Positions 7,214 to 48,880 of a stretch of 64,000 nt of DNA are shown piece after piece (the stretch's first letter is position 1; every line of letters begins with the position of its first letter). This stretch comes from Candidatus Kerfeldbacteria bacterium (GTDB taxonomy: Bacteria > Patescibacteriota > Patescibacteriia > UBA10025 > JAHIVO01). The stretch covers positions 37,820 through 101,819 of the forward strand of contig JACROE010000002.1 in assembly GCA_016214565.1 (NCBI GenBank), given 5' to 3'. The notes under the pieces were generated by a model. That model was given only the letters and a program-made list of their open reading frames with translations, ran no database searches and was not told the origin of the DNA. The translations under genes and the position numbers were made by a program.

Positions 7214-7214
7214 T

Positions 7215-33677: not shown

Positions 33678-34307
33678 ATGATAAGCCATCAAACATCGGT
33701 ATTTCTAACCGTGGCAATAATTGTTGTCATGCTATTTGGCGTGTCTACCCTGGCTACCGCCACCACTGACACGCCCGTCCAACCGCGACTCATATATAGT
33801 ACGCTGAATGCCATTAATGAAGAACGGACTGCCGCCGGACTCAATTCGCTTGTTTTACATGATATGTTGAATGAAATCGCCTTAGCTCGGGTCAATGATA
33901 TGGTCTCCAAGGTATATTTTGGCCATGATTACGATCAGATGGGTACTGTTGTCGAATTTGCAGAAAAGATAGAGCTGCCATACATATACATTGGCGAAAA
34001 TCTCGCGCTCGGCTACTCAGATCCTATAAGCCTGGTTTCTGCCTGGATGGACAGTCCGGACCATAGAAAAAACCTACTGAATGGCAATTATCGAGGTTTT
34101 GGCCTTGCCGCAACCGAAACGCCAGATGGTATGCTTATTGCCACGATTTTCAGTGATGTTGTTCCCAAATCAACAAATCCAGCTGCGCTAGATCAACCAG
34201 TATCAATAATAAGGGCTGAAAAAAAAGCTAATTGGGATAATTGGCCTATTGTTATTAGCCAATTTCTTCAGCTGCGGTCAGTGCACTCTTTAGACTCAAA
34301 TCAATAA
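33678..34307 (+). CDS. Secreted CAP/SCP/PR1-like domain protein, YkwD-like
   Basis: 209 aa. Signal/TM segment, then CAP signatures GENLA..YS..IS.VSAWMDSPDHRKNLLNGNYRGFG. Confidence 0.75.
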   Translation: MISHQTSVFLTVAIIVVMLFGVSTLATATTDTPVQPRLIYSTLNAINEERTAAGLNSLVLHDMLNEIALARVNDMVSKVYFGHDYDQMGTVVEFAEKIELPYIYIGENLALGYSDPISLVSAWMDSPDHRKNLLNGNYRGFGLAATETPDGMLIATIFSDVVPKSTNPAALDQPVSIIRAEKKANWDNWPIVISQFLQLRSVHSLDSNQ

Positions 34308-34759
34308 CTATTCTTAATAGCACTTATCCACAGATGCAATCGTGCTGTTTTTATTGTGTTTTGACTAGGGTTGACAAAAATCCCAAATAGACTAAGATGG
34401 TGGGACATCAAAAGAAAAAATCTTGACAGATAAAACCAAAACTAGTGTAACGGAAAACAAAACATTCGTTCATTTTCAGGAGAATTTGCACCTTGTACAA
34501 TACGCTAAACCGTAGGAGGAGCGTAAAAAGACCAACAAAAAGTTATAAGATTCTAAAATCAGCACCAAGTAAGGTAGTAATGCCGAAACATCTCAATTTT
34601 GCAGAGTTTCTGGTAATTGCGCTGATGTGAATTAAAAAACAAGTTTTTTATAACTTTCTGTTGGTTTTTTTGATGCTTAATTGCTCATTGGACCAACCAT
34701 GCGGAGGGATAACGCAAACCATAATTTTAATAACTTTTCCAAGAAATAAGCTAAAACCT

Positions 34760-37700
34760 ATGAATACCTATATGAGTCCTAAGGCCCGACGGATAGCCTC
34801 AAAAGCCCTTCACCTTTTCACCGCCCTGGTGATGGTGCTCAACGTGACGACCGCCGGATTCCTCGTGAATCCGCAGGTGGCCAACGCGGCAAGTCCTTCG
34901 GCGAATTTAGACCAATGCGCTAACGATCCCGCTCCCTCACCAAGTACAAATGGCTGCTCAACCAGCGCCACTGAATGGGTCAATGGTAACCTCGGCGCAA
35001 GCAAATCTGTTTACTATGAAGGTGATTCAATCCCCTACCGCATGGTATTTGGGGATCTTTCGCTTGGCTCACATACGGTCACCATTGAATGGGATACCAC
35101 GAAATCCGGAAAGCATGCGATAGACTACCTCACCACCTACAACCGATCCGTGACAACGGCTGACCCGACACTCGGCATTGCTGGTCTCGGCGCTCCTACC
35201 ACGTTCGCCATCCCCGCTGACCCACAGGTCACCGGTGCTGGTGTCACCCCCATTACGGGAAACTTTACCTTATACGGTGGAACGATCACCGCTGCAAGCG
35301 CATATTCCTATTCTAACGGCGCTGGATTTGCCGGCGACAAATCAGCCAGCATCACGCTGACCTTCACCGCATCGGTAGCTAACCCAGTACTCGCCTGGGG
35401 TGGACACATCTCACATCGCGGCGATTGGGGAACTGAAAATTCCGCAGTGGCAATTCCAGGATCGCCGTATCATACTCGATTGATTAATCTTGACGGTTCT
35501 GGCGGTAATCAAGATCGTTCACTGTCTGCAGACGCGGTTATTTATCCAGCTTCCATCACCGTGGTAAAGGACGCTAATCCAAATGGTTCACAAAGCTTTA
35601 ACTACACCACCACTGGTGGCCTCTCACCGGCAAACTTCTCATTGGTTGATGACGGCACCACTGCAAACACCCGCGCCTACACTGGCATTACAAATTTCAC
35701 GACGTACACCGTGACTGAGTCGGCACTGGCTGGCTGGACACTAGCTGGTATCACCTGTGTGGTTACCTCTCCAAACGGCGGAAGCCAAACGGTTAATAAA
35801 CCGTCGGTATCTATTAGCCTTAAAGAAGGTGAAAATGTTACCTGTACCTACACCAATAACGGCTCTGCAAGTTTGAACATCAAGAAATACGTGCGCAAAG
35901 TATCAGCCGACGCGAATGTCGCGAGCAACTGGTACAACTGGGATGTTGCTGGACAAATTTTGACTGTACTGCCAGGTGAAACTGTTGAATATAAAGTGAT
36001 TACCTGGAATAGCGGTACCGCTCCTGGCACTGCCACGGTCGTTGACGCAACCAGCAATTCAACCATATACAATCCGACCTATACGGGCGGCACTCTATTC
36101 TCAAGCGTGTCAATCCCCAATCAGAATGGAGCCGCTATGCCATCGGTGACGACCGCAGCTGGAGATGGCGCCTATTGGAAAATTGTTACCTACCAAAAAC
36201 AAGTAGACGCAACGACAGCAACGAGCGGGACGACTTCTTCGATCAACACGGTTACCCTCAATGGCACTCAGACTTCAAAAGCGAAGATCCAAGTGACATA
36301 CGCTTGCGACCTCCGCATTACCAAATCGGTTGACTCAGTCGACACTCAAACCAACTCAATCATTTACAAACTCGATTACCAAAACATCGGCACGGCTGAC
36401 TGCACCGGCGGCGGTGTCCGCATTGACGACGCTATTCCTACAAACACGTCATACGCCAATTGGCATGCAGAACATTCCGCCGACACTAATGAAGTCAAAT
36501 TTGGATACGAGTACGCAAAATTTGGCACAACGAATACAACCGGCTATAACGGATCACTGTTGAGTTGGAATGCACGCGTGCTCAACCCCCAGGAAACTGG
36601 TTGGGTAAAATTCAAAGTCAATGTCCGCACCCTCCAGGAATGTGAAGAGCTAGATATTCTGAATAAAGGAAAAATTTACTCGAATGAAATTCCTGACGGT
36701 ATCTGGTCAAATGAGGTCAGTACGCACTTTGCTGCGCCCTGCACCACAACCATCAAAGTTATCAAGCACGTCATCAATGACAATGGTGGCACAAAAACCG
36801 CCAGCAATTTCACCCTGCATATCACGGGCACCGCAGGTGACTACACGTTCAACGGTTCAGAAGCTGGACAAACCTTCAATGTTGTCCCAGGAACATTCAC
36901 CGTCTCTGAAGATATCCTCTCCGGCTATGCCATGACCATGAGCGGCGATTGCTCGGGCAGTATTGCACTGGGCCAAGACAAAGTTTGCACCGTCACCAAC
37001 GATGACATTGCTCCAAAACTGAAGCTAGTGAAAACCGTCATTAATAACAACGGAGGAACATTACAAGTAGCTGACTTCCCGCTTTTCGTGAATGGCAATT
37101 CCGTCACCAGCGGTCAGTGGAATACGCTCACTGCGGGTGTCAAATACACCGCAACTGAGACTAATCAGTTTGGCTACCAAGCTTCAGTCTGGGGAACTGA
37201 TTGTGCTGCAAACGGCACTATCACGCTGCAGCCTGGCGAAGAAAAAGTTTGTACCATCACCAACGACGACATTCAGCCGAAATTGATTGTGACCAAGCAC
37301 GTCATCAATAATAACGGAGGTACCGCAGTTGCCGCTGACTTCACACTGAATGTGACGGGCATCAGCGCCACCCCATCGTCATTTACTGGCAATGAAGCAG
37401 GGACTGAGGTTGCGCTCAATGCTGGTGCGTACAACGTCGACGAAAATGCTTTTACGGGCTATGCAAAAACATTGGGCACTGATTGCTCAGGCACAATCAG
37501 CGTCGGTGAAACAAAATATTGCACGGTCACCAACGATGACATTGCTCCGAAACTCAAGCTGGTCAAGACTGTCATTAATAACAACGGCGGTACGAAACAG
37601 GTGTCTGACTTCCCGCTTTTCGTAAATGGCAATTCCGTCACCAGCGGTCAGTGGAATACGCTCACTGCCGGTGTCGAATACATCGCCACAGAAACCTCGG

Positions 37701-40700
37701 ACAAAGGCTACCAGGCATCGATCTGGGGTGGTGACTGCTCAGACAATGGAACCATCACGCTTCAGCCAGGAGACCAAAAAATCTGCACCATCACCAACGA
37801 CGACATTCAGCCAAAATTAACCGTCACCAAAATTGTCACCAATGACAATGGCGGCACGGCTGTCGTGTCTGACTTCCCATTGTACGTCGACCAAACACAA
37901 GTAACCTCAGGCGTACAGAACGGCTTTGACGCGAAATCATACATCGTCTCTGAAACAAGCCTGCCCGGCTATACTGCCACCATCTCGGGTGACTGTGACG
38001 CCCAGGGTAATGTGACCCTGCTCCCGGGAGACGAAAAATCGTGCACCATCACCAATGATGACCAAACGGCTCACCTGACGCTCATCAAATATGTAACCAA
38101 CGACGATGGCGGCTTATCCACTGCCGGCGATTGGCTCTTGAGCTCTTCAGGTCCGACTTCCCTCTCCGACTACGGCACGGCTGACGGTGATGTGAATACG
38201 GGAACTTACGCACTGTCTGAACAGGGCCCGACTGGTTATGATGCCAGCGACTGGATCTGCCGCGGTGGCATTCAGGATGAAGACACGATTACCCTCGCAC
38301 TTGGTGAGTCTGCCACCTGCACCATCACTAATGACGATATCGCCGGAAAAATCTGGGGATACAAATACGACGACAACAATGGCAATGGCCAATACGACCA
38401 GGATGACCAGGCTATCGAAGGCTGGACCATCTTCCTGAAGCAGGCCGGCCAAACCATTGGCACTGTCCAAACCAATAGCAATGGCTACTACGAATTTACC
38501 GACTTATCGGTCGGCAACTACTCAGTCGTGGAAAACATGCTGACCGGCTGGGTACCGGTTTCAGACCAGGGCTATGATTTCTCAGTCGTGCCTGGCTACA
38601 CGCATCAGTTTGACTTCCTCAATTATCAGCTCGGAACAATTTCCGGATACAAATTCGAAGATGTGAATGGCAATGGTAACTGGGATCAGGATGAACCAGC
38701 TATTGCAGATTGGACCATCAATCTGTCTGGATCAGCAACTGACACGCAAAAAACAGACGGTAACGGTTACTACGAATTTACCAATCTCGCGATTGGCAGC
38801 TACACCGTCAGCGAAGAAATGCAGTCCGGCTGGACCAACACTACCCCTGACAGCATTGCCGGTCTCCAAATCCTGAATTCCGGTACCAACCTAACCAGTA
38901 ACACCTTTGGCAACTTCAAGCTCGGTAAAATTGCTGGATACAAATTTGAAGACATGAATGGCAATGGTACTTGGGACCAAGGCGAACCAGCGCTCGATGG
39001 CTGGGAAATCTGCATTGACGAGGAAGAAGAATGCGTCATCACCGGCAGCGGTGAATGGCAAACTGGTTACTACGAATTCACTGGTCTTGAAGCGGGAACC
39101 TATTGTCTCTCAGAAGAAATCCAGGATGGTTGGGTACAAATGGCTGCTCCATCAAAAATCAAGGTTATCTCAGGAACAAATTCAACTGATAACAATTTCG
39201 GTAATACCGAACTCTCAACCATCACTGCCACTAAACTCATTGATGCTGATGGCGATCTCGAATCTGACGAGGATCAAACTGCCAAGGAAGGCTGGACCGT
39301 ACAGCTCTGGAAAGGTGATGCTCAGTTCGGCGATGATCAGACCACTGACGTGAATGGCCAGTACACCTGGAAAAACCTCATGCCCGGCACCTACACGGTC
39401 AAAGAAGTATTTGATACCAATGAATTCACTGCACTCACCAACACCGAATACACGATAGAAATCACCTCAGGTGATGAGGAATCAGTCACCTTCATTAACT
39501 TCGAAAACATCGACGTCACGGTCTGCAAATATGTGGACCTGAATGGCGATGGCGATCTCGAGGGCGATTCACTCTACACCGGTGGATGGGACATGTACTT
39601 GAATGAAGCAAAAGCCACTACTGATGACAAAGGCTGCTACACCTACGCCAATCTCGGTCCTGGATCATACGACTTGAGCGAAGCGTCAGATGAAGGCTGG
39701 ATGCAAACGTATCCGGTTGATCCCGATGAATATGAATTCGACGCCGTCTCAGGCCAGAATGTTCGCTATGACTTCGGCAACTTTGAGCTCGGCAAAATCT
39801 CCGGATATAAATTCGAAGACATTGACCGTAGTGGCACCTGGAACAACGAGGAAGGCGGCTTAGCCGGTTGGACCATCAATCTCTGGGATGAATCAGACGG
39901 TCAGCCCGATGAAATCATTGCCTCAACCATTACTGATGAAAATGGCTACTACGAATTCTCCGACTTGGAAGCAGGCACTTATTTCCTCTCAGAAAATCTG
40001 ACCGACGGCTGGGTACAGACCTATCCTGTCGCGCCCGGCATCCATGGCCCAATTGTCGTGACGTCCGGATATGATAATGGCAATCAAGAAGAATACTTCC
40101 TCTTCGGTAATGCGGAAAAGATTACCTTGCATGTAAATAAGACTACTGACAAACCAGTGGTCGAGGCAACCGAAACCGTGAATTACCGCATCGACTGGTC
40201 AGTTTCTGGCAATTCAATTGCCACCAATGTAACGCTAGTTGATACCATTCCGACCCAACTCAATATCAATCTCGCGAGCATCAGCGATGGTGGTGTCTGG
40301 GACGCAACTGCCCGCACGATCACCTGGAGCTTCGGCGATCAGCAGCCAAATGCCTCCGGCTTCGTTACCTATACGGCAAATATCGTCATCCCGATTGCCA
40401 ATGGCACTCCGATTGTAAACGTGGCTAAACTGTCTGCAGATAATTCAGACCCACTCTTCGATGAAGACGATGCGACGGTAACCGTCACCTCTGCTCCGAA
40501 ATTGACCATTGATAAATCGGTCAATGTCACTACCTTCGTCAATCCAAAAGCAGTCGTGACCTACACCGTAGTAATCGACAACGTCGGCACTGACACAGCC
40601 ATCGCCACTATGCTGGCTGACGCACTACCGGCTGGATTCACCTTCGTCGACACCGGCCTGGGCACCAAGACCTGGAGCCTCGGTGATCTCGCACCTGCAG

Positions 40701-41341
40701 ACGCACCTATTACGATTACCTACCAGGTAAAAGTTGGTGCTGATGTAGAAAAAGGTTTCTACGACAATCTGGCAGTTACCTGGGCGTCCAACCACCCCAG
40801 CATCTCTGACAAGGCAACCGTCGAAGTCCGCGTGCCAACTGTCTTAGCTGAAGAGGCTGACCCGGTCTTGATTATCCAGAAATCAGTCAATAAAGAATTT
40901 ATCAATCCAGGTGACAAGGTCATCTACACGGTGAAAGTCACCAACATCGGTGATGCACAGGCTGAAGCCGTGGCTATCAATGTCCGCATCCAGGATATTC
41001 TTCCATCCGGATTCACCTTCGAGGACGGCAGCCTCACCAAAGTCTTCCAGCTCGGCGACATCATGTACGGCGAATCAAAGACCATCACCTACACCGCCGT
41101 TTCCAGTAAATCAGTTCTTCCGGGTGATTACGAAAACGTCGCCATTGCTTGGGCAGACAATCATGGCAAAATCTCAGACTTTGCAGTCGTAGAAGTGCGC
41201 AAACCGCAAGTACTGGGCGCTGAAGCCCTCCCCACCACTGGTGGCGGCATGCTGGTCTGGCTCTACGGACTGGTCGCGCTTTCCCTTCTGGCTTTTGCTG
41301 GCTGGGTGCTGCGACTGACCTTTGACCGAAATGAGAACTAA
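34760..41341 (+). CDS. Giant sortase-substrate surface adhesin: conserved N-terminal domain, prealbumin-like and roughly 89-aa Ig-like repeats, SdrD-B-like Ca-binding repeats, DUF11-like repeats, and an LPXTG anchor
   Basis: The ORF opens at 34661, but the likely start is MNTYMSPKARR followed by a signal/TM segment (FTALVMVLNV). Repeated GYKFEDxNGNGxWDQDEPA..GWTI modules. C-terminus EALPTTGGG, a hydrophobic helix, then RLTFDRNEN. Confidence 0.8.
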   Translation: MNTYMSPKARRIASKALHLFTALVMVLNVTTAGFLVNPQVANAASPSANLDQCANDPAPSPSTNGCSTSATEWVNGNLGASKSVYYEGDSIPYRMVFGDLSLGSHTVTIEWDTTKSGKHAIDYLTTYNRSVTTADPTLGIAGLGAPTTFAIPADPQVTGAGVTPITGNFTLYGGTITAASAYSYSNGAGFAGDKSASITLTFTASVANPVLAWGGHISHRGDWGTENSAVAIPGSPYHTRLINLDGSGGNQDRSLSADAVIYPASITVVKDANPNGSQSFNYTTTGGLSPANFSLVDDGTTANTRAYTGITNFTTYTVTESALAGWTLAGITCVVTSPNGGSQTVNKPSVSISLKEGENVTCTYTNNGSASLNIKKYVRKVSADANVASNWYNWDVAGQILTVLPGETVEYKVITWNSGTAPGTATVVDATSNSTIYNPTYTGGTLFSSVSIPNQNGAAMPSVTTAAGDGAYWKIVTYQKQVDATTATSGTTSSINTVTLNGTQTSKAKIQVTYACDLRITKSVDSVDTQTNSIIYKLDYQNIGTADCTGGGVRIDDAIPTNTSYANWHAEHSADTNEVKFGYEYAKFGTTNTTGYNGSLLSWNARVLNPQETGWVKFKVNVRTLQECEELDILNKGKIYSNEIPDGIWSNEVSTHFAAPCTTTIKVIKHVINDNGGTKTASNFTLHITGTAGDYTFNGSEAGQTFNVVPGTFTVSEDILSGYAMTMSGDCSGSIALGQDKVCTVTNDDIAPKLKLVKTVINNNGGTLQVADFPLFVNGNSVTSGQWNTLTAGVKYTATETNQFGYQASVWGTDCAANGTITLQPGEEKVCTITNDDIQPKLIVTKHVINNNGGTAVAADFTLNVTGISATPSSFTGNEAGTEVALNAGAYNVDENAFTGYAKTLGTDCSGTISVGETKYCTVTNDDIAPKLKLVKTVINNNGGTKQVSDFPLFVNGNSVTSGQWNTLTAGVEYIATETSDKGYQASIWGGDCSDNGTITLQPGDQKICTITNDDIQPKLTVTKIVTNDNGGTAVVSDFPLYVDQTQVTSGVQNGFDAKSYIVSETSLPGYTATISGDCDAQGNVTLLPGDEKSCTITNDDQTAHLTLIKYVTNDDGGLSTAGDWLLSSSGPTSLSDYGTADGDVNTGTYALSEQGPTGYDASDWICRGGIQDEDTITLALGESATCTITNDDIAGKIWGYKYDDNNGNGQYDQDDQAIEGWTIFLKQAGQTIGTVQTNSNGYYEFTDLSVGNYSVVENMLTGWVPVSDQGYDFSVVPGYTHQFDFLNYQLGTISGYKFEDVNGNGNWDQDEPAIADWTINLSGSATDTQKTDGNGYYEFTNLAIGSYTVSEEMQSGWTNTTPDSIAGLQILNSGTNLTSNTFGNFKLGKIAGYKFEDMNGNGTWDQGEPALDGWEICIDEEEECVITGSGEWQTGYYEFTGLEAGTYCLSEEIQDGWVQMAAPSKIKVISGTNSTDNNFGNTELSTITATKLIDADGDLESDEDQTAKEGWTVQLWKGDAQFGDDQTTDVNGQYTWKNLMPGTYTVKEVFDTNEFTALTNTEYTIEITSGDEESVTFINFENIDVTVCKYVDLNGDGDLEGDSLYTGGWDMYLNEAKATTDDKGCYTYANLGPGSYDLSEASDEGWMQTYPVDPDEYEFDAVSGQNVRYDFGNFELGKISGYKFEDIDRSGTWNNEEGGLAGWTINLWDESDGQPDEIIASTITDENGYYEFSDLEAGTYFLSENLTDGWVQTYPVAPGIHGPIVVTSGYDNGNQEEYFLFGNAEKITLHVNKTTDKPVVEATETVNYRIDWSVSGNSIATNVTLVDTIPTQLNINLASISDGGVWDATARTITWSFGDQQPNASGFVTYTANIVIPIANGTPIVNVAKLSADNSDPLFDEDDATVTVTSAPKLTIDKSVNVTTFVNPKAVVTYTVVIDNVGTDTAIATMLADALPAGFTFVDTGLGTKTWSLGDLAPADAPITITYQVKVGADVEKGFYDNLAVTWASNHPSISDKATVEVRVPTVLAEEADPVLIIQKSVNKEFINPGDKVIYTVKVTNIGDAQAEAVAINVRIQDILPSGFTFEDGSLTKVFQLGDIMYGESKTITYTAVSSKSVLPGDYENVAIAWADNHGKISDFAVVEVRKPQVLGAEALPTTGGGMLVWLYGLVALSLLAFAGWVLRLTFDRNEN
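36744..38340 (+). repeat. Array of six roughly 267-nt (89-aa) intragenic tandem repeats, including two near-identical 534-nt units
   Basis: Units starting at 37003 and 37538 are nearly identical at the DNA level (gacattgctccaaaactgaagct... against gacattgctccgaaactcaagct...). Recurrent protein motif K.V.NDNGGT...DFPLFVNGNSVTSGQWNTLTAG. Confidence 0.7.
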
Positions 41342-41362
41342 CGCCATTTGATAGGCAAACCA

Positions 41363-41398: not shown

Positions 41399-41608
41399 CT
41401 GGTGTGTCTGGCAAAAAAGGTGATAAAATATTTGACGAAACAAGGTATTATTGGTACAGTAGACTACCAATAATGATTGCTGATAAGATTGTATTGGTTT
41501 AAATACCAGTTCCGGCGTATAATGACCCATGGCATTAATAACAACCCACAGTACCGGTAGATAGATTAAAAAAAATAAACTAACCTTAGCCAATAATTAA
41601 GTGACTAT

Positions 41609-44600
41609 ATGTTAAAGAAATTATCACGATACGCAGAGCGCGGTCTGCACATTTTTGTGTTACTGACCATGCTCACCTACACCGCAGGTTTTGGCCTGTT
41701 TTTTAATGCGCCGATGGCGCGTGCTGCTCAAGCCGCAGCTAATCTTGACCAATGCCGAAACGGTTCAGCGGCATCCCATCAGAATTGCATTGATTCTACA
41801 TGGGTGAACGGAAATGCGGGTGAAGCAAATTCACATTACGTCGAGGGGGAATCTATTCCTTATCGTGCTGTATTGACAGGTCTTCCAACCGCAACCCCAA
41901 TTACCATCACCTTCGGCTACGATATTAAACACTCTGACAGACATGCGATCGACTACCTAACTCAGTACGACAGAACCGACGTGAGCGTTAACCCAATAAA
42001 TGACATTCCTGCAGCAAGTGGCCTGCCAAACACTTTTGCAATTCCTGCTCCCAGCTCCGTCGGGTCACCAGTTGCAGGACAACCAACAAATAGCTTCAAT
42101 AATCTTCCTGCGGCTGAACGCGTGATGTCAATCTGGAATGGAACGATCTCTTCTATGAACTATGTAACCGAGGGTGTCCTCACTGCATCAAACTCAGAAA
42201 CACGAATAGCCATAACTTTTACCGCCACCAATTCTACAGTCGTGCTTTCCTGGGGCGGCCACATCGGAAGTAGACTAGATTGGGGTTATGATGTATCAAA
42301 TGTTCCGCTTTCAGCGGGAGGTATTTCCGGCTCTCCATACCACATGCGTCTCATTGGCTGGTCACTGAGTAATCTTGGTAACCAAGATCGTTCACTCTCT
42401 GCGGGTGCAGTTGCTCCCCCAGCGAACATCATCATTGAGAAACAAACATTACCAGATGGAAGCACAGAACAATTTGCATTTACTGGAGACATTGCGGGGA
42501 CCATTTCCGATAATGGGCAATTGACCGCGAGCCTCCCGGCAGGAACATACTCAGTAACAGAAAGTGTAAAAACAAACTGGTCCCTCACCAGCTTGGTCTG
42601 CGATGATACTGACAGCGTGGAAAACGTTGGGACTCGTACCGCCACGATTAATGTAAGCTCCGGCGAATCTCTGAAGTGTACCTTTACCAATACTCGGGAT
42701 ACCGGCGACCTCAAAGTGGTCAAGCTGAATCAAAACCAACAGCCGATGGCCGGTGTTGATTTTACTATTGCTGGTGAGCCATACAGTACCGATGCAAATG
42801 GAGAAATTTTAATTACTGACCTCGAAACTGGTGACTATTCTGCGGAAGAAATTGTACCAAATAATTACACCCTTACCTCAGTATCGGGCACCAACTGTAC
42901 CAACGCAAACCCCTCAACAGCAACAGTCGTGAAAGATCAAACTACGACCTGTACCTTTACCAACACGCGCGATACCGGAACAATCAAAGTCAATAAGGAA
43001 GTAGACACCAATGGCGACGGAACATTTGATGGTGGCAATACTGAAGCTGCCTCACTTGGCTTTGTCTGGGGTATCGATGCCGAATCCCCTGCCCGCGCCA
43101 TGGGCAGCTCTGAAACAGTAGTCACCGGGAACTATGACATTAATGAAAACAGTGTTACCAATTATCACTTGAGTGGCTGGTACACCAATGGGTCAGATTA
43201 TTCTTGCGAAAACCCAGAAAGCACCACGCTCCCCGCAAACATTGATATAACAAAAGACAGCACTACGGAAATTACCCTTTGTAACACACGAGACACTGGT
43301 ATCATCACATTCGAAAAAATCGTCAATGGCGATGCCCTCGTAAGCAGGTGGATTTTTACGATTGATGGTGTTCTGGGCAGCTGGATGAGTGGCGATTCAG
43401 TCACTTTACCGACTGGCAGCTATACGGTATTTGAATCAGGCCCCGATGGCTATACAAATACTGATGTCTCCGGCGTTTGCTCACCGTCGACTCCAGGTCA
43501 AGGATTACTCACCGTTGATACCAATGGTGGCACTTGTACCTTCACCAATACCCGCGACACCGGAACAATCACTGGGCTGAAATTCAACGACTTAAACGGG
43601 AACGGCTCACTCGATGCTGGCGAGCCGGGTGTCCCGGGCGTAACAATCAACCTAAGCGACGGCCAGACTACGACTACAGATGCTAATGGCCAATTTTCAT
43701 TCAATGATGTGCCAACCGGCAACTATGACGTTGATGAAATTGTCCCGACTGGTTGGATGAACACTACTCAAACAAGTGTCAACCTAGACGTCACAAAAGA
43801 TGAACAGGCATATGCAGAATTTGGCAATTTCAAAAAAGTGAATATTACGGTCTGCAAAGCGCTCGACGCTGATGGTGACGATCAGACAACTGATGATCAA
43901 ACCTTAAAAGACGGATGGTCAATCTATCTAGCTAAAGACGGTAAAGCTGTAGATCAAGGACAGGTCACTGGCCAAGACGGCTGCTACACCTGGGCAGATA
44001 TGGGGCCAGGAAGCTACGAAGCCGCAGAAGCCACGCCGGATAACTGGATTCCACTCTATGACGACGGTACCCATAATTTCGGTACTGTTACGTCAGGCGA
44101 AACCTACACTCACACCTTCGTCAACACCAGGGAACGAGGCGAGGTTACCATCAACAAAGAAATCAGAAACCCTCAAAATGGATCAGCTGTTCCCTCAGAC
44201 TGGACATTCACGCTCCATCCAACCCAAGGCGGAGATGACATTACCGGAATCAATCATAATACCCCGATAAATATCCCCACTGGCTTTTACACTGTTTCTG
44301 AAAGCGGTCCGTCGCAGTATTCATTCCTCTACGCCTATGGTGACTGTAATGAAGACGGTGACATCTACCTTGAAATAACCAGCGAGGGAGCAACCTGCAC
44401 ATTTGTAAATGAAACCTACGCTGTTCATGGCCAGAAATGGAATGACGCAAATGGAAATGGCATCTGGGATCAAGATGAAACCGCGCTCAACGGGTGGAAT
44501 ATCTCCATCTACCAAAATGATGAGTTGATTGACTCAATACTGACGCAAACTCACAATTATGTGGACGGCTGGTATTGGTTTAACGACTTAGCTGCCGGGT

Positions 44601-45700
44601 CTTATGAAATCTGCGAAACACCCCAAGCTGGCTGGGTTCAGACATACCCTACGGCAAATAACGGATGTCACACGATTTCGGTTCCAATAGAAATTACCTA
44701 CGAGCAACAAATTCCTCAAATTGACAACTCTACCTGCTCACTAAATTTCTCTCGAGAACTTAGAATAACGGCAGTTGAAAACAGTATTGTTTCAGAGGCT
44801 CTCTGCAATTTTGGCAATACGCCTGAAGTAGTCGTCCTCGGCATTGCCAAGATCAATGACCAGGAAGTAGCGCAGGGCGGCAATGGTCTCCTGGAAACCA
44901 CCGAGACCATCACCTACCGCGTTGACTGGAACGTCGATGGCAATTCAAATGCAACCGATGTGGTGCTGACTGACATAATTCCTGCGGAACTGAATCTGAA
45001 TGTAGCTTCCATCTCGGATAGCGGCGTGTGGAACGCAGCCACCCGAACGATCACCTGGAACTTTGGTACTCAGGCTCCTGGAGCCAGTGGATTCGTCACT
45101 TATGAAGCAACGCTGAAAGTACCTGCCTCAGACGGCGATATCATCATCAACGTGGCTCGACTCTCGGCATCTAATACCGATCCGACTTTCGTCGAGGCCG
45201 ACTCTCCTGTCGAAGTGAACGTACCGGTTGTGCTCGGCGAAGAGGCATTACCCGCACTGACAATCGAAAAAACAGTCAATAAAGCCTTTGCCAATCCCGG
45301 CGACACTGTGACCTATACCATTGTCGTGACTAACACCGGTGATGCCGTAGCTGAAGGCGTAACCGTGATCGACACGCTCCCGGATGGCCTGCACTACACA
45401 GACACGATGGCCATGGACCACTCCTGGTTCCTCGGTGATATCCTCGACGGTGAGAGCAAAACCATCACCTATCAGGTAACGGTTAATGCCAATGCCATTG
45501 CTGGCAACTACATCAATACCGCCGTGGCCTGGGCCGCAGGAGTCAACAACGTGACCGACACAGCCACCCTGGAAGTCCGCAAACCTGCGGTACTGGGAGC
45601 TGAAGACCTGCCTGTGACTGGCGCTGGATTCTTAACCCTCGCCTTCTCTGCCCTGGCTGGATTCGGTGCGGTCGTCCTGTCCAAGCGCAAACGGAAGTAA
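41609..45700 (+). CDS. Second giant sortase-substrate surface adhesin, paralog of the upstream gene
   Basis: 1363 aa. The N-terminal domain is paralogous (ANLDQC...WVNGN...GESIPYR...AIDYLTQYDR...GSPYHMRL...GNQDRSLSA). It carries prealbumin-like, SdrD-B-like (NGNG.WDQDE) and DUF11-like repeats, and ends DLPVTGAG, a TM segment, then KRKRK. Confidence 0.8.
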   Translation: MLKKLSRYAERGLHIFVLLTMLTYTAGFGLFFNAPMARAAQAAANLDQCRNGSAASHQNCIDSTWVNGNAGEANSHYVEGESIPYRAVLTGLPTATPITITFGYDIKHSDRHAIDYLTQYDRTDVSVNPINDIPAASGLPNTFAIPAPSSVGSPVAGQPTNSFNNLPAAERVMSIWNGTISSMNYVTEGVLTASNSETRIAITFTATNSTVVLSWGGHIGSRLDWGYDVSNVPLSAGGISGSPYHMRLIGWSLSNLGNQDRSLSAGAVAPPANIIIEKQTLPDGSTEQFAFTGDIAGTISDNGQLTASLPAGTYSVTESVKTNWSLTSLVCDDTDSVENVGTRTATINVSSGESLKCTFTNTRDTGDLKVVKLNQNQQPMAGVDFTIAGEPYSTDANGEILITDLETGDYSAEEIVPNNYTLTSVSGTNCTNANPSTATVVKDQTTTCTFTNTRDTGTIKVNKEVDTNGDGTFDGGNTEAASLGFVWGIDAESPARAMGSSETVVTGNYDINENSVTNYHLSGWYTNGSDYSCENPESTTLPANIDITKDSTTEITLCNTRDTGIITFEKIVNGDALVSRWIFTIDGVLGSWMSGDSVTLPTGSYTVFESGPDGYTNTDVSGVCSPSTPGQGLLTVDTNGGTCTFTNTRDTGTITGLKFNDLNGNGSLDAGEPGVPGVTINLSDGQTTTTDANGQFSFNDVPTGNYDVDEIVPTGWMNTTQTSVNLDVTKDEQAYAEFGNFKKVNITVCKALDADGDDQTTDDQTLKDGWSIYLAKDGKAVDQGQVTGQDGCYTWADMGPGSYEAAEATPDNWIPLYDDGTHNFGTVTSGETYTHTFVNTRERGEVTINKEIRNPQNGSAVPSDWTFTLHPTQGGDDITGINHNTPINIPTGFYTVSESGPSQYSFLYAYGDCNEDGDIYLEITSEGATCTFVNETYAVHGQKWNDANGNGIWDQDETALNGWNISIYQNDELIDSILTQTHNYVDGWYWFNDLAAGSYEICETPQAGWVQTYPTANNGCHTISVPIEITYEQQIPQIDNSTCSLNFSRELRITAVENSIVSEALCNFGNTPEVVVLGIAKINDQEVAQGGNGLLETTETITYRVDWNVDGNSNATDVVLTDIIPAELNLNVASISDSGVWNAATRTITWNFGTQAPGASGFVTYEATLKVPASDGDIIINVARLSASNTDPTFVEADSPVEVNVPVVLGEEALPALTIEKTVNKAFANPGDTVTYTIVVTNTGDAVAEGVTVIDTLPDGLHYTDTMAMDHSWFLGDILDGESKTITYQVTVNANAIAGNYINTAVAWAAGVNNVTDTATLEVRKPAVLGAEDLPVTGAGFLTLAFSALAGFGAVVLSKRKRK

Positions 45701-45722
45701 TCTCGCTTCTCTAGAACTTCAA

Positions 45723-45757
45723 CCCCCACACCGTAGGACGGTGTGGGGGTTTTTGGT
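45723..45757 (+). terminator. Canonical rho-independent terminator of giant gene 2
   Basis: cccccacaccgt agg acggtgtggggg followed by TTTTTGG. Confidence 0.7.
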
Positions 45758-45870
45758 ATATATTTTCCCTTTATTTTTTGAATGTGGGGTCTGGGGGCGA
45801 CTCTAAGCCATTCCTACCCAGTACAACAATTCAAAATGGCGAGCGCATAGGAGCCCCCGGCGCTTCTTTT

Positions 45871-45902
45871 CTGTCACTTTTCTTGGCGTCAAGAAAAGTG
45901 AC
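45871..45902. promoter_or_regulatory. Perfect 14-bp inverted repeat with a 4-nt spacer, a candidate operator upstream of the CAP-PT gene promoter
   Basis: tgtcacttttcttg gcgt caagaaaagtgaca. Confidence 0.35.
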
Positions 45903-46021
45903 AAAGTATCGTAAAGAGATCCTGCCCACCCCACTTCGCGGAGCGAGGCCGGGAAAACGAGTTCAGGATGGCTTCGCCAGATTGTCACGTCGATCCGCTC
46001 CTCGCCATGACGGAGATAAGG

Positions 46022-46050
46022 CTTGACAAACCCTAAGCGACATGCTATTA
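46022..46050 (+). promoter_or_regulatory. Sigma70-type promoter of the CAP-PT gene
   Basis: TTGACA, 17-nt spacer, TATTAT. Confidence 0.5.
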
Positions 46051-46094
46051 TCATCTGTTAAAACATCATTAAATACGCTATAATTTTTATTGCA

Positions 46095-47627
46095 ATGCCG
46101 CAACCAACCGCGCAAAAGAAGAAATTCCACCACCACGTGATTCACCACACGCGGCATTTTTTGATTCCTCACCATGGCAATGACCACAAGCCGCACGCGC
46201 TGCGCCCACCGGCATTGCGCCTGTATGCTATTACGGTTATCGCGGTAAAACTCTTTGTCACCGGTTTTCTCTTTTTGACGAACCCCTCTGCCGGCTACTT
46301 TGCTGAGATTACCTCATCTCAGTTACTTACTTTAGCAAATCAGTCGCGGGCCGAAGCTGGCGTCGGACCATTAGTCATCAGCAACAAACTGAATTATGCC
46401 GCTTCGCTCAAAGCGCAGCACATGATGGAGAATGATTATTTTGCCCATACCGCTCCAGATGGCACCAAGCCCTGGTATTTCATTAAGCAGGCTGGCTACA
46501 GTTATACTGCAGCTGGTGAAAACCTGGCCATGGACTTCACTGAAGCAGAAACCGTCCACCAGGCATTTATGGATAGCGCCAGCCACCGAAAAAATATTCT
46601 CAATGATAAATACACGGAGATGGGAATTGCGGTGATGGAAGGCACCCTGCAAGGTAGTCAAACAACACTGTTGGTTGTTTTCTTTGGCGACCCATATGTG
46701 GCCACTCCAACACCAACCCCTACTCCAGAGCCAACGCCGACACCTACTCCAGAGCCAACGCCGACACCTACTCCAACCCCAACACCTACTCCAGAGCCAG
46801 CTCCAACACCGACTCCTACTCCCCAGCCAGTCCAAATCACAACCCCGCAGCCTAACTGGTACCGCGCTGAACTCTCTGACCAAAGTGCCGAGGAGCTTGG
46901 CATCAAACCGCTGGAAAAAATTACGTTCTGGGTAGAATTTAAGAATACCGGCAGCGCTGCCTGGGTGCGCACCGGCGATTACTTCGTCGCATTGAATGTG
47001 ACAAATCCCGCTGGACGAGAAAGCGAATTCTATGATGAATCATGGAAAGAGTTATATCGACCCGCCGTCCTTTCACAGGATCGAGTAAATCCAGGCGAAG
47101 TTGGAAGATTTGAATTCACTCTGAAGGCACCCGAAGAAGCCGGTACCTACGAGGAGGACTTTGGTCTGGTGGCGGAAAATGTTACCTTCATTGATGGTGG
47201 ATCAATCGAACTGCCAATCGTAGTCGTAGCGCCGCCGGAAAAAACAACTGAACTCGAGGTTGAAGTTGTGCCAACCCCCACCACCCCGGCGACAACCGAG
47301 CCTGACAAGCCAACCCCCACCACCCCAGGCGTCACTGAACAACCCTTAGCGGCTGATCAGCATTCTGACGCAGTGGTCAAAGCTCAAACTGTCGAAGTGC
47401 AAAACCCATCTATCATGCAGAATATACTGCAATACTCGCACCGGCTGTACCAAATATTCCTTGCCTTTATCGTCATCGCTTTACTCCTCAATATCGTCAT
47501 TGAGATTCGAGTGCAGCACCCGCATGTCATCGTTCAAACAATTCTCGTTATTATTATCGTGGTGACGGCAGTCGTGCTCAATACTCATTTCCTGGAGGGA
47601 ATTCCCGGCCAAATCAGAATTATTTAA
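46095..47627 (+). CDS. CAP-domain protein with a Pro/Thr-rich linker, an uncharacterised beta-rich domain and a C-terminal hydrophobic anchor
   Basis: 510 aa. CAP motifs [35 protein letters not shown]. (TPTPEP)n linker encoded by 27-nt tandem repeats at about 46714-46835. C-terminal TM helices. Confidence 0.7.
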
Positions 47628-47658
47628 ACCTTGCTACTGCCTGCATAGGCATCAGAAC

Positions 47659-47687
47659 CCCGCTTTCGGCGGGGTTTTTGTTTTCTG
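47659..47687 (+). terminator. Rho-independent terminator of the CAP-PT gene
   Basis: ccccgc tttcg gcgggg followed by TTTTTGTTTT. Confidence 0.65.
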
Positions 47688-47773
47688 AGATATTAGCTGC
47701 GCCTGGCGCTTGACCGGTACTGAAAAATCTAATAAGATAAGGTAATTATCTAATTACTCATTGAAGACATGTT

Positions 47774-48880
47774 ATGGCATACCGCGCACTGAGGAGGGTG
47801 GTTATGATTGCGCTTTTCGGGGCGTTAATTATAGCTGGATTATCGAGTACCCCGACACAGGCATTAGTCGGCAATAATGCACCTGAGATCACCTCTACCC
47901 CGCCGCTAACCATCCAGGCGGATGAAGCCTATGGCTATACCCTGGCTGCCACTGATACAAATAGTGATACACTCACCTGGCAACTAACGGTCAAACCAAA
48001 CGGTATGACCCTGGCGGGAAACACTATCAGCTGGAATCCGAGCATTGTCGGCACCTACAATGTCGTCGCTGAAGTAACTGATGGCAAGGATGGGTATGAC
48101 ACACAAGTCTGGCAAATCTCCGTCATACCTGGTGTAACTACACGGGTAACGATTGAGCCAAATGCTAACCTCTCCCCGATTATTCTCGGCCTCAGCAAGC
48201 AGTTTACCGTTTCAGCAATCGACGCTGAGGGGAATGCTACCAGCACCGCTGGCGTAGTCTGGAGTGCAGATTCAGCTATCGGCACGATTGGAACCGATGG
48301 ATTGTTCCAAGCTGAGCGTGGCGGCACCGGAATGATCACCGCAACGCTTGATGGTGTCAGTCAATCAGTGTCGCTAACCGTTGTGGATACGCGCGATGAC
48401 CAAGTCAGCCCGGCAACCAATGCGAATACGAATACCGCCGCACCAACAAATACCAATACCACAGTAACCAATACGAATACGGCTGGTGCAACGAATTCTA
48501 GCACCAACGAAAATGCCAACGAAGTTGCATCTAATACCAATACGGAAACTCCAGCCTCCGAAACTCCGGCGACAACCACTGATAAACAGCCCTGCGTCAA
48601 TCTGGTGCATTGGGCCATCATCGTGATTCTACTCGCCTACGGCCTGATCGTCATCCTCTACTACCGGTACGAACGAACGGCGCCGACACCAGCCTGGTGG
48701 ATATTGCCTCTCCTCGTTACTATTATCGCACTGATCATCTACTACCAACAGATTTGCCCAGGCGAATACCTCTGGTGGCCCTGGGCCATCGTCGGCATCG
48801 GCGTGATTGCTACCATCTACTACAAAGGCAAACGCGGTGGCGATGCGGGAGAAGATGTGCAAACCAAATTGCCGATCTAA
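47774..48880 (+). CDS. Surface protein with an Ig-like and a Big_2 domain, an N/T-rich low-complexity region and a C-terminal 2-3 TM anchor
   Basis: 368 aa. Signal peptide. Big_2 pattern FTVSAIDAEGNA...VVWSADSAIGTIGTDGLFQAERGGTGMITATLDGVSQSVSLTV. Low-complexity NTNT repeats. Hydrophobic C-terminus. Confidence 0.6.
   Translation: MAYRALRRVVMIALFGALIIAGLSSTPTQALVGNNAPEITSTPPLTIQADEAYGYTLAATDTNSDTLTWQLTVKPNGMTLAGNTISWNPSIVGTYNVVAEVTDGKDGYDTQVWQISVIPGVTTRVTIEPNANLSPIILGLSKQFTVSAIDAEGNATSTAGVVWSADSAIGTIGTDGLFQAERGGTGMITATLDGVSQSVSLTVVDTRDDQVSPATNANTNTAAPTNTNTTVTNTNTAGATNSSTNENANEVASNTNTETPASETPATTTDKQPCVNLVHWAIIVILLAYGLIVILYYRYERTAPTPAWWILPLLVTIIALIIYYQQICPGEYLWWPWAIVGIGVIATIYYKGKRGGDAGEDVQTKLPI

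Follow-up and report, generated by a model that had tools for sequence, protein, structure and literature searches.

In the 64-kb window, the whole stretch of DNA analysed here, positions 33678-48880 encode two CAP-domain proteins, two paralogous LPXTG giants and one Ig-domain membrane protein. The five open reading frames (33678-34307, 34661-41341, 41609-45700, 46095-47627 and 47774-48880) are co-directional, all on the plus strand. Together with the Pfam domains and the sorting signals, they confirm the five-gene surface-protein cluster of the initial annotation, and export or membrane anchorage is predicted for all five products. The cluster lies between rplL-rplJ-kinase-YceG-NTP transferase-PCMT (pcm) and UppP (uppP)-DUF212-Fpg, and the same slot is present in other Kerfeldbacteria-like Patescibacteria (L003, L004, L007, L015, L025 and L031). 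Peptidoglycan synthesis genes for a Mur ligase, a PBP transpeptidase and MraW also occur within the window.

Domain architecture of the five proteins

Two proteins carry CAP (SCP/YkwD-like) domains, one of them with a (TPTPEP)n stretch, as initially described. CAP1 (33678..34307, plus strand, 209 aa) has a predicted N-terminal signal/anchor followed by a CAP domain at aa 43-152 (Pfam PF00188, E 6.3e-16, above the cut-off). CAP2 (46095..47627, plus strand, 510 aa) consists of an N-terminal TM anchor, a CAP domain at aa 80-188 (PF00188, E 4.9e-19), the (TPTPEP)n linker, an Ig-like domain at aa ~277-362, a second Pro/Thr linker and C-terminal TM segments. The (TPTPEP)n linker corresponds to a tandem DNA repeat at nt 46707-46835 (TRF), and N_BRCA1_IG matches this protein at E 7e-5, below its cut-off. 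The closest solved relative of CAP2 is 4ifa, an SCP-domain protein (E 5e-24).

The open reading frame of giant 1 opens at 34661 with TTG and would give 2226 aa, the size first reported. The start is probably the ATG at 34760, supported by aligning the two paralogues and by a separate gene call, and this gives 2193 aa (34760..41341, plus strand). In the numbering of the longer frame, a predicted signal peptide is followed by a head domain (aa 76-300; 34886..35560, plus strand), SpaA_4 (aa 299-400), a DUF11-like region (aa ~400-700), six SpaA_2 modules to aa ~1225, SdrD_B/SpaA modules (aa ~1229-1810) and four DUF11 modules (aa 1823-2172). Pfam matches comprise SpaA_4, six SpaA_2, five SdrD_B, three SpaA and four DUF11 domains. 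The internal repeats are 62-82% identical in DNA and are therefore diverged rather than assembly duplicates. The protein ends in an LPTTG motif (nt 41228-41242), a TM segment and a basic tail.

Giant 2 (41609..45700, plus strand) has the 1363 aa originally assigned. Its predicted signal peptide and head (aa 39-275, nt 41723-42433) precede SpaA_4 and a stalk of SpaA-like, two SdrD_B, SpaA_2 and two DUF11 modules, the same Pfam families as in giant 1 at lower copy number. An LPVTG motif (nt 45608-45622), a TM segment and a KRKRK tail follow. These two motifs are the only ones in the window succeeded by a hydrophobic segment and then a basic tail, in agreement with the sortase signals proposed earlier, and the prealbumin-like, SdrD_B-like and DUF11-like repeats noted there correspond to SpaA-type, SdrD_B and DUF11 matches. 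Signal peptide, head, ~12-22 Ig-like stalk modules and LPXTG fit the plan of a sortase-anchored fibrillar adhesin; giant sortase-anchored adhesins were what was first suggested from the sequence.

The fifth protein (47774..48880, plus strand, 368 aa) has a predicted signal peptide, two Ig-like domains, an Asn/Thr-rich linker and a C-terminal three-TM module in which Cys and Trp residues are conserved. Its description as an Ig protein with a C-terminal TM anchor holds, while the Big_2 assignment of the second Ig-like domain (aa 114-205, nt 48113-48388) is more tentative: Pfam gave no Big_2 match even at E<=10, and a sequence search of the PDB aligned these residues with Ig domains of the Big_2 type from Leptospira LigA (E 2.9e-4).

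From homology and gene context, on which our functional statements are based, we consider it probable that this is the chromosomal surface-adhesin locus of an ultra-small, Kerfeldbacteria-like bacterium of the Patescibacteria (CPR), in which the giants are monomeric fibrillar adhesins and the CAP and Ig/three-TM proteins are membrane accessories.

Gene neighborhoods in related genomes

Searches of the window and of ~16 kb added beyond its ends revealed no sortase gene, a dedicated pilin sortase included. Sortases are encoded in over half of CPR genomes (PMC6744442). The cluster of the closest relative (L003) itself includes a sortase gene, and in eight relatives one directly adjoins a head-domain adhesin (PF04203 confirmed on one representative, L003). 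A homologue of the fifth protein is encoded 3' of the sortase gene in L003 (E 3.5e-30), and its C-terminal module alone is found 3' of the sortase gene in L041.

A CAP gene adjoins a head-domain adhesin in nine relatives, always co-directional and within 4 kb, and there are no CAP matches elsewhere in the +/-10 kb flanks of these nine loci. CAP and adhesin genes are thus clustered in related genomes rather than scattered, the arrangement that the initial annotation had named as refuting it. Full-length CAP2 homologues sit beside head-domain adhesins in L047 (E 3e-94) and L004 (E 2e-82). There is no CAP gene beside the adhesin in L015, L025, L035, L051 and L063; CAP adjacency is frequent, not obligatory. 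A reverse scan from CAP genes covered 80 loci: 19 carry a sortase gene, which in 17 is immediately next to CAP (-69 to +303 nt) and on the same strand, and just 1 of the 80 has a head domain next door. In 24 loci the sequence extends 2.5 kb or more on each side, and 12 of these 24 show, no more than 3 kb away, either a sortase or an ORF of 700 aa or longer. The link between CAP and sortase is therefore the stronger general one, compared with that between CAP and adhesins with this head, and the adjacency points to a recurrent CPR module of CAP, sortase and large anchored protein.

The five genes might instead encode independent envelope proteins that merely share a variable surface-protein slot, with the CAP proteins in a general wall or division role. 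We regard this as doubtful. Slot content does differ among relatives, with a SipW-like peptidase, a LamG protein and a dockerin protein in L003, type IV pilus genes in L015, and TasA-like and SipW-like genes in L031. Several adhesin loci have no CAP gene, and each gene of the cluster has a promoter-like site, two of them also a terminator. Rhodobacter DalA, a CAP protein, binds peptidoglycan and belongs to the divisome (PMC10470522), and its NCBIfam model (NF052539) matches the CAP domains here, as does TIGR02909 (YkwD), both with scores under their cut-offs. Mere co-location is nevertheless difficult to reconcile with nine of nine CAP genes on the adhesin strand at such short range, or with the position of CAP, which from one CPR class to the next (Kerfeldbacteria-like, Microgenomates and Parcubacteria) stays next to a sortase, a large anchored protein or both.

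A conserved head domain

Pairwise alignment shows that the two giants are true paralogues: their N-terminal regions are 36% identical over 424 aa (E 4e-52), and all of the shared blocks listed earlier (ANLDQC, WVNGN, IPYR, AIDYLT, GSPYH.RL and GNQDRSLSA) are seen in it. The head of giant 1 (225 aa) is unannotated and highly conserved; that of giant 2 is a divergent paralogue, 46% identical to it and at most 47% identical to every other family member examined. The 225-aa head has no sequence match in Pfam, NCBIfam or PDB, to catalytic families or otherwise, in line with its original description as a domain without assigned function.

The head family comprises ~2,500 cluster representatives from several phyla. 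In every case the domain occupies the N-terminal part of a very large protein (1,000-3,300 aa); the C-terminal anchors vary, with LPxTG in the CPR relatives L031, L038, L051, L063 and L067. Head plus SpaA_4 is 58-71% identical among Patescibacteria, Actinomycetota, Chloroflexota and Acidobacteriota, compared with 33-47% for the stalks, and no other part of the protein is as conserved across phyla, free-living and symbiotic, as the head. This argues against a host-specific receptor. Of the adhesion or host-attachment toolkit initially envisaged, a role in host attachment is plausible though unproven. Conserved residues of the giant 1 head include a Cys pair (C10/C23) and invariant polar residues (N34, E44, H195, D209 and others), among them three His plus Asp, Glu, Asn and Arg.

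Structure prediction, which the initial annotation had proposed for this domain, gave a confident model of an elaborated beta-sandwich. The model is nearest to Ig-like domains of Gram-positive pilins and adhesins (CppA, RrgB, BcpA, EbpB, SpaA, AgI/II and PrgB), with fold-level likeness also to cohesins and CBM3. Superposition on the Ig-like adhesin domains covers only about half of the head, and structure comparison found no close solved structure.

Adhesive tips are not usually so extremely conserved, and the pattern would also suit an enzyme or a structural cap. We consider it unlikely that the head is a stalk-displayed enzyme or effector, such as a hydrolase or a metal-dependent activity, with which the locus attacks or feeds on neighboring cells. 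The unusually many invariant polar residues, the conservation of the head above the stalk and the partial superposition all speak for an enzyme, but the lack of catalytic-family matches does not, a beta-sandwich is typical of binding modules such as pilins, cohesins and CBM3, and the domain is placed as adhesive domains are in fibrillar adhesins.

Conservation between phyla bears also on the origin of the cluster. The head, and in non-CPR phyla a C-terminal domain as well, is 63-80% identical between distant phyla, so that some inter-phylum gene transfer is hard to avoid. Yet a horizontally acquired genomic island is quite improbable here. GC content (0.47-0.51) and GC skew are the same as in the flanks, so the cluster is not set apart by its composition; there is no integrase, transposase or tRNA-flanked border at the cluster, the sole tRNA of the window being at 59650; and orthologous genes fill the same slot in at least six related genomes. 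The word island used at first is misleading because this chromosomal slot is conserved.

A sortase-polymerised pilus with the giants as its subunits is very improbable. In its favour, the head finds its best structural matches among pilins, both major and minor (CppA, RrgB, BcpA, EbpB and SpaA), the stalk families are SpaA-type and tandem paralogues resemble shaft and tip genes. Against it, neither a conserved lysine nor a pilin-motif-like element occurs in the head (K75, the one Lys that is frequent there, is replaced by Arg in giant 2), each protein already contains 12-22 stalk domains, and the cluster has no sortase gene, those adjoining in relatives being single genes.

Proposed function and comparison with known systems

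As fibrillar adhesins, the giants would be exported via their Sec signal peptides and retained by LPXTG, TM segment and basic tail so that a sortase can link them to peptidoglycan; without sortase action, the TM helix would keep them in the membrane. Ig/transthyretin-like modules (SpaA_4, SpaA_2, Ca-binding SdrD_B and DUF11), about 22 in giant 1 and about 12 in giant 2, could carry the head tens of nanometres off the cell. The head would be the disulfide-containing working end, most likely binding a ligand, which is probably a widespread, invariant molecule given the conservation across phyla. The two CAP proteins and the Ig/three-TM protein may serve the CPR sortase/adhesin module as accessories tethered to the membrane. 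The CAP proteins probably act on anchored proteins or the surrounding wall, either by processing or regulation, as PrgA does on PrgB, or by binding peptidoglycan, as DalA does.

The locus is of a familiar kind, an adhesin locus with an unannotated conserved head, not a novel kind of system. MSCRAMM-type fibrillar adhesins (S. aureus SdrD and Cna) share with the giants the signal peptide, non-repetitive N-terminal head, Ig-like stalk, SdrD B-type Ca-binding repeats, SpaA-type domains, LPXTG, TM segment and basic tail. In contrast to these, the giants belong to a CPR organism, and their head is not among the known adhesive domains, forms one elaborated sandwich rather than an N2-N3 dock-lock-latch pair, and is the most conserved region instead of the most variable; against NCBIfam MSCRAMM models they score 71 (cut-off 2500). 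Sortase-assembled pili (SpaA, RrgB, BcpA and CppA) resemble the giants in head fold, SpaA-type stalk and the adjoining sortase of relatives, but polymerise small subunits where the giants are single polypeptides. The Pam pili of Saccharibacteria (Ca. Mycosynbacter amalyticus), CPR-specific Ig-like filaments proposed to reach host cells, are small-pilin polymers formed by donor-strand exchange with chaperone-like factors and include no LPXTG, CAP or giant proteins.

The pairing of CAP proteins with giant adhesins had been called undescribed, which is only partly right. On pCF10 of E. faecalis, the gene for PrgA, a CAP surface protein, neighbors that for the LPXTG adhesin PrgB, and the CAP domain of PrgA takes part in PrgB processing (10.1101/2020.06.18.156562). 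PrgA itself has an LPXTG anchor and presents its CAP domain on a coiled-coil stalk of 40 nm, whereas the CAP proteins of this locus have TM anchors and Pro/Thr linkers; the PrgA-PrgB-PrgC module is plasmid-borne and conjugation-linked, while this locus is chromosomal. The CAP profile did not retrieve PrgA at E<=0.01. The position of its proposed catalytic Ser, preceding the conserved His, varies here (S/T/D/A/N/G), so a PrgA-like serine mechanism is not conserved. The signature H...GENLA...S..H..N(I/L)L is common to SCP/YkwD-type CAP proteins, which are extracytoplasmic envelope proteins (4ifa, Sav1118 4h0a, Borrelia BB0689 4d53 and Rhodobacter DalA); CAP2 differs in its Ig-like domain and anchors at both ends. 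In the literature searched, we found no consistent sortase or adhesin linkage for these families.

Transcription signals

A strong promoter and terminator had been proposed for every gene. Promoter-like sites do occur upstream of each, including 33611-33639 (CAP1), 34371-34398 and 34473-34501 (giant 1), 41432-41460 (giant 2) and 46023-46051 (CAP2, 11/12 matches), but their total of 18 equals the 18.7 expected from shuffled sequence. Only two terminators are convincing, a strong one after giant 2 (45721-45751) and one after CAP2 (47654-47678).

The 452-nt leader of giant 1 contains a long hairpin (34528..34672, plus strand; arms 34528-34548 and 34648-34670) followed by a U-run, with an RNA fold z of -4.05 and no Rfam family. 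In L007, L031, L003 and L004 the region upstream of the orthologous gene preserves both arms. Seven of 14 stem pairs are changed on both sides, 94.6% of cells are paired, and 0 of 500 shuffles were as good, with arms extracted by hand. This conserved, terminator-like hairpin is a candidate attenuator and appears to control giant 1.

Gene content and architecture of the cluster

The five plus-strand ORFs at 33678-48880 encode proteins of 209, 2226, 1363, 510, and 368 amino acids, and ORF calls together with Pfam searches bear out the initial annotation, which described co-directional genes for CAP-domain proteins and giant LPXTG proteins. We read the cluster as a CPR locus for fibrillar adhesins of the sortase-anchored type. 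Pfam places CAP domains in the first and fourth proteins (CAP1 and CAP2). Giant 1 is built from one SpaA_4, six SpaA_2, five SdrD_B, three SpaA, and four DUF11 modules, and giant 2 contains the same Pfam families in lower copy numbers. The length of 1363 aa first reported for giant 2 stands, but the 2226 aa reported for giant 1 counts from a longer ORF that opens at TTG; alignment with the paralogue and an independent gene call both place the start at ATG 34760, giving 2193 aa. The proposal that the giants share an N-terminal domain holds: they align with 36% identity over 424 aa (E 4e-52), and every motif block originally listed for the domain falls within this alignment. Cysteine pairs are conserved both in this head domain and in each SpaA_2 repeat.

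The internal repeats of the giants have diverged (62-82% DNA identity) and thus are not assembly duplications. Logan short-read assemblies of the same population (a contig end from SRR12113407, L001, and L166) are interrupted within giant 1 and at the CAP2 linker or just 5' of the fifth gene. They do not span these repeat-rich genes, and the window must therefore derive from a better assembly. The (TPTPEP)n stalk attributed to one of the CAP proteins is a genuine DNA tandem repeat (46707-46835) that forms the CAP2 linker. Promoter-like sites lie 5' of each gene, as had been suggested, but only two clear intrinsic terminators were found (45721-45751 and 47654-47678) where one per gene had been claimed. 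For the fifth protein, Pfam does not return the Big_2 domain that was expected, even at E<=10, yet phmmer matches residues 114-205 to the Big_2-type Ig-like domains of LigA (whole-sequence E 2.9e-4).

Both giants have a putative export signal at one end and a sorting signal at the other. By eye, each N-terminus has a basic n-region, a hydrophobic core, and an Ala-X-Ala-like site. Giant 1 ends in LPTTG, GGMLVWLYGLVALSLLAFAGWVL, and RLTFDRNEN, and giant 2 ends in LPVTG, AGFLTLAFSALAGFGAVVL, and SKRKRK, so that in each an LPXTG motif leads into a hydrophobic segment and then a basic tail. The window has no further sorting signals of the LPXTG type. In Gram-positives, fibrillar adhesins have an adhesive domain at the N-terminus, stalk domains in tandem, and a sortase signal at the C-terminus (PMC8286594), and the giants match this overall plan. 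Measured against the definition of Monzon et al. (2021), they carry tandem modules from recognised stalk families but not a recognised adhesive domain; the head only holds the position of one. On these features of the sequences, we consider it fairly likely that the giants are anchored fibrillar adhesin-like proteins.

Related classes of surface protein were compared as well. The giants fall outside the MSCRAMM family of the SdrC/SdrD type, since they reach 71 bits against a cut-off of 2500 for NF012181, over the B-repeat region only, and their head is a single 225-aa domain whereas MSCRAMMs have tandem IgG-like N2-N3 subdomains. Sortase-assembled pilins have a pilin-motif lysine and a pilin sortase in their cluster, whereas the heads of the giants have no invariant lysine and their cluster does not include a sortase. 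Polymerisation into a pilus was rejected, as no pilin motif was found. The Pam pili of Saccharibacteria, which are assembled by donor-strand exchange, are a separate system from this cluster. Attachment of CPR bacteria to hosts and surfaces is little understood beyond type IV pili and these newly described Pam pili.

A resident locus in a conserved chromosomal slot

The cluster had been described as a surface-protein island. A recently inserted or compositional island was rejected on GC content, which is the same as that of the flanks, and on synteny, as the chromosomal slot is conserved in relatives. On one side the cluster is flanked by rplL, rplJ, an amino-acid kinase, YceG/MltG, a sugar nucleotidyltransferase, and PCMT, and on the other by UppP, DUF212, Fpg, a CBS protein, and VKOR; genes for glycolysis, a Mur ligase, a PBP transpeptidase, MraW, LexA, and DinB lie further out in the window. 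The same arrangement with orthologous flanks (E down to 1e-187) occurs in six loci from other genomes (L003, L004, L007, L015, L025, and L031). The genomes that share the slot are Patescibacteria MAGs and a complete Candidatus Kerfeldbacteria chromosome. The conserved flanks identify the cluster as resident, in a chromosomal slot that is maintained within a Kerfeldbacteria-like CPR lineage.

What the slot contains differs from genome to genome. In L003 a CAP gene and one giant share it with a SipW-like signal peptidase, a LamG protein whose signal is of the TasA type, a dockerin protein, a sortase, and a protein homologous to the fifth one of the window. L031 combines CAP and one giant with a TasA-like protein, a small LPVTG protein, and a SipW-like fusion, and in L015 the slot holds type IV pilus genes. 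The extra surface genes are located at 6614-9309 in L003 and 17261-20453 in L031; the SipW-like peptidase belongs to S26, and the dockerin protein is of the dockerin-repeat type. From these extra genes in L003 and L031, it follows that the slot collects several surface-fibre systems.

Three of the MAG loci compared (L004, L025, and L047) are labelled as from uncultured Gammaproteobacteria. For two of them, L004 and L025, both the gene order and close orthologues are shared with the window, L007, and L031. L047 encodes a full-length CAP2 homologue, a CPR-type sortase, and a head-bearing adhesin; its flanks do not match the window. Given the synteny of the first two and the CAP2, sortase, and adhesin set of the third, the labels are probably wrong.

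The head is a conserved domain found across phyla

Neither Pfam (searched to E<=10) nor NCBIfam recognises the 225-aa head (34886-35560 in giant 1), and a profile search of PDB sequences returned nothing for it. A Foldseek search of the PDB with the modelled beta-sandwich returned nothing significant, the best hits being a type II cohesin and CBM3a (E ~0.06). The family itself is large. A word-indexed protein search yielded 387 matches and GTDB species representatives 381 loci, and an exhaustive search recovered 2,510 cluster representatives at E<=1e-3, or 596 at E<=1e-30. Heads occur in Patescibacteria, Actinomycetota, Chloroflexota, Acidobacteriota, and one Methanoperedens bin, and in a cultured organism, Intrasporangium oryzae NRRL B-24470 (Actinomycetota). 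In every complete example the head is at or near the N-terminus of a protein of 1,000-3,300 aa.

The alignment of the family contains a near-invariant pair of cysteines (C10 and C23) and the invariant polar residues N34, E44, S47, Y50, R51, D69, H76, D79, H173, S192, H195, Q208, D209, and R210. Together with SpaA_4, the head is the most conserved part of these proteins, with 58-71% identity between phyla compared with 33-47% for the stalks. This pattern is the reverse of that expected for a fast-evolving, host-specific tip and suggests a conserved ligand or activity. The head of giant 2 is a divergent paralogue, with at most 47% identity to any other member examined.

Two more specific ideas about the head were set aside. 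A thioester, isopeptide, or ester cross-link is unsupported, as there is no invariant Lys or Thr in the first strand, and the presence of the near-invariant C23 besides C10 makes a disulfide likelier. A cohesin-dockerin interaction was raised by the cohesin-like fold matches and by the dockerin gene 5' of the adhesin in L003; it was rejected, as no dockerin-like gene is present in the other loci or in the window.

In the non-CPR phyla and in one Patescibacteria-labelled MAG (L035), an extra Ig-like domain precedes the head. We compared these proteins in I. oryzae (L011, 9410-15181) and in L005, L012, L013, L020, L033, L035, and L039. They do not have an LPXTG motif and end instead in a domain of ~165 aa (GVTRTQGFWATHPQLA...FTPGTSADSK.AR.IA..FWN..P) without a Pfam match, which may be another anchoring or functional module. 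This domain is nearly identical across Actinomycetota, Chloroflexota, and Acidobacteriota, which hints at transfer between phyla, and, given the conservation of the head, some inter-phylum transfer of the genes for head proteins has probably occurred. The head is thus widespread, unannotated, and strikingly conserved, and makes a candidate adhesin class that is accessible in a cultured actinomycete. Its definition as a family would allow better annotation of thousands of "hypothetical" giants in soil and groundwater metagenomes.

CAP proteins recur beside sortases and large anchored proteins

The CAP domains of CAP1 and CAP2 are confidently assigned to PF00188 (59.7 and 69.7 bits against a gathering cut-off of 21.1), and H58, E82, and H104 are invariant in the alignment of CPR CAP domains. 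A profile search of the PDB places them in the bacterial SCP group, closest to 4ifa (E 5e-24), followed by Sav1118 and BB0689. Matches to two NCBIfam models fall below their cut-offs: YkwD (TIGR02909; 77.5 and 106.7 bits against 171) and DalA (NF052539; 38 and 51 bits against 200).

Clustering of CAP genes with adhesins in related genomes, which had been proposed as a check, was found in 9 of the 80 genome loci retrieved with the head (L003, L004, L007, L031, L038, L041, L047, L067, and L068). In all nine the CAP gene is on the strand of the adhesin and at most 4 kb from it, with no CAP gene elsewhere in the flanks. A sortase gene lies directly beside the head-bearing adhesin in eight loci. 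Pfam PF04203 was checked on two sortases, one from an adhesin locus (L003) and one from the reverse scan described below (L089).

For the reverse scan, a profile of the CAP2-type CAP domain, built from five sequences, was used to collect 80 loci from JGI metagenome contigs. The head is next door in only one of them. A sortase gene is present in 19, and in 17 of these it is immediately adjacent to the CAP gene (-69 to +303 nt) and co-directional. Where at least 2.5 kb was available on both sides (24 loci), half (12/24) have either a sortase or an ORF of 700 aa or more within 3 kb, and in several of the large ORFs the C-terminus is a TM segment with a basic tail. All of these CAP-sortase counts are raw, without phylogenetic correction or a measured background rate. 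From the reverse-scan counts we derive a recurrent CPR unit of a CAP membrane protein, a sortase, and a large anchored protein, in which the head-bearing adhesin is one among several types of cargo. The presence of CAP proteins beside sortases and their substrates offers a testable lead to the poorly defined function of CAP proteins in bacteria.

The pairing of CAP proteins with giant sortase-anchored adhesins had been presented as an undescribed system, which is partly right. PrgA, encoded by the Enterococcus faecalis plasmid pCF10, is a CAP-domain surface protein whose gene lies beside that of the LPXTG adhesin PrgB, and it takes part in PrgB processing via Ser, His, and Asp residues arranged in the CAP cleft (10.1101/2020.06.18.156562). 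A CAP protein that works with a sortase-anchored adhesin therefore has a precedent. For the CPR CAP-sortase linkage or a CAP-sortase-adhesin module, we found no description in the literature on CPR sortases and LPXTG proteins, on Patescibacteria adhesins, or on sortases with CAP/SCP domains; under YkwD and CAP domains, the literature yielded papers on unrelated "cap domain" enzymes only. PrgA also differs in structure: it has an LPXTG anchor and a long coiled-coil stalk, whereas CAP1 and CAP2 have TM helices and neither a coiled coil nor an LPXTG motif. The Ser of PrgA is not conserved in the CPR proteins, where the residue before the conserved His varies (S/T/D/A/N/G), and PrgA was not retrieved among the CAP-profile matches. 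DalA is a peptidoglycan-binding, divisome-associated protein (PMC10470522); it is tied to CAP1 and CAP2 solely via the below-cut-off NCBIfam match, whereas PrgA is a bona fide CAP-domain protein. By analogy, PrgA and DalA may serve as mechanistic leads for the CPR CAP proteins. A functional coupling of CAP1 and CAP2 to the giants is a real possibility, to which we give slightly less than even chances.

Other small membrane proteins occur in such loci. The C-terminal three-TM module of the fifth protein (gene at 47774-48880; residues ~275-355) is rich in Trp and Tyr, has two conserved cysteines, and does not belong to a Pfam family. It recurs directly 3' of the sortase gene in two adhesin loci (L003, 16232-17257; L041, 10411-10953), and may be a further accessory of the sortase module. 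Separately, proteins of ~315 aa with a signal peptide and a TM anchor are encoded directly 3' of the head-bearing adhesin in four loci of Microgenomates or Gottesmanbacteria type (L038, 14643-15590; L051, 7584-8543; L063, 15021-16031; L067, 13232-14173), 5' of the sortase where the sortase is downstream. They show only a weak Ig_3 match in Pfam and are mutually homologous (E 1e-19 to 1e-67).

The window itself is unusual in that it has two CAP genes and two LPXTG giants without a sortase gene. No sortase was identified in the 64 kb by a TLxTC motif scan, by Pfam searches of every large ORF, by an HMM from eight CPR sortases run with --max on all window ORFs of at least 30 aa, or by phmmer searches that used S. 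aureus SrtA or a CPR sortase as the query. Neither the 10 kb left of the window nor the 5.7 kb on its right contains one. More than half of CPR genomes encode a sortase (PMC6744442).

A hairpin in the leader of giant 1

In the 452-nt leader of giant 1, the segments 34528-34548 and 34648-34670 form the arms of an 18-bp stem that encloses ~100 nt and is followed by a U-run. Its fold is better than that of all 200 shuffles (z = -4.05). Both arms are conserved 5' of the orthologous gene in L007, L031, L003, and L004, and the hairpin spans 34528-34672 in the window, 9604-9785 in L007, 9597-9730 in L031, and 9552-9662 in L003. We replaced a whole-leader MAFFT/RNAalifold analysis, in which the 5' arm was misaligned, with an arms-only count based on four distinct sequences with arms extracted by hand. 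In that count, 7 of 14 pairs have changed on both sides and yet remain paired, and 94.6% of cells are paired; 0 of 500 shuffles were as good, and slid controls were far lower. Rfam has no match in the leader or in the rest of the cluster, its sole match in the window being a tRNA at 59650, and the hairpin is absent 5' of giant 2. From its structure, the element looks like a terminator-type attenuator before a 6.6-kb gene, and it may be a new cis-regulatory element.

Proposed function of the locus

From homology or gene context only, we infer the following course of events. The giants would be exported via Sec and folded oxidatively, as indicated by the conserved cysteine pairs of the head and of every SpaA_2 repeat and by a VKOR-family gene (51797-52240, minus strand) 3 kb 3' of the cluster. 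VKOR/MdbA-type disulfide machinery has been reported alongside pili and sortase families in CPR genomes (Meheust et al., 2019). The sorting signal would retain the giants, and a sortase encoded elsewhere would link them to peptidoglycan. Some 22 and 12 Ig-like modules, some of them Ca-binding, could hold the heads ~50-90 nm from a very small cell, assuming ~4 nm per module, where the heads would bind a conserved ligand. The CAP proteins and the fifth, Ig/three-TM protein would sit in the membrane beneath the giants, where either these anchored proteins or the adjacent cell wall would be their target.

A more far-reaching proposal joins three parts, and we regard it in its entirety as rather unlikely. 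The CAP membrane proteins would be dedicated partners of a Patescibacteria-specific sortase display, where they process, release, or position the giants as a chromosomal, lineage-wide counterpart of PrgA/PrgB; the head would be a new binding or catalytic family, exchanged between phyla, for a universal envelope or environmental ligand; and a new leader RNA of the terminator type would gate expression of the giant.

Other features of the window

Several genes outside the cluster are of separate interest. A minus-strand region at 4313-10277 has a low GC content (0.32-0.37, against ~0.47 elsewhere) and contains three paralogous genes with a 7TM histidine-kinase N-terminal domain, one of which encodes a complete 966-aa kinase (GAF-HisKA-HATPase); a methyltransferase-like gene is interspersed. 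The gene at 20084-22054 (minus strand) encodes a 656-aa protein with FG-GAP repeats that also matches Por_Secre_tail (E 4.5e-9), the C-terminal sorting domain of type IX secretion, which one would not expect in a Patescibacterium whose envelope is Gram-positive-like. A 758-aa protein without a Pfam match is encoded beside rplL/rplJ at 26579-28855 (plus strand). Its position is kept in L004, L007, L025, and L031 (E down to 4e-247), and the protein is conserved in the lineage.
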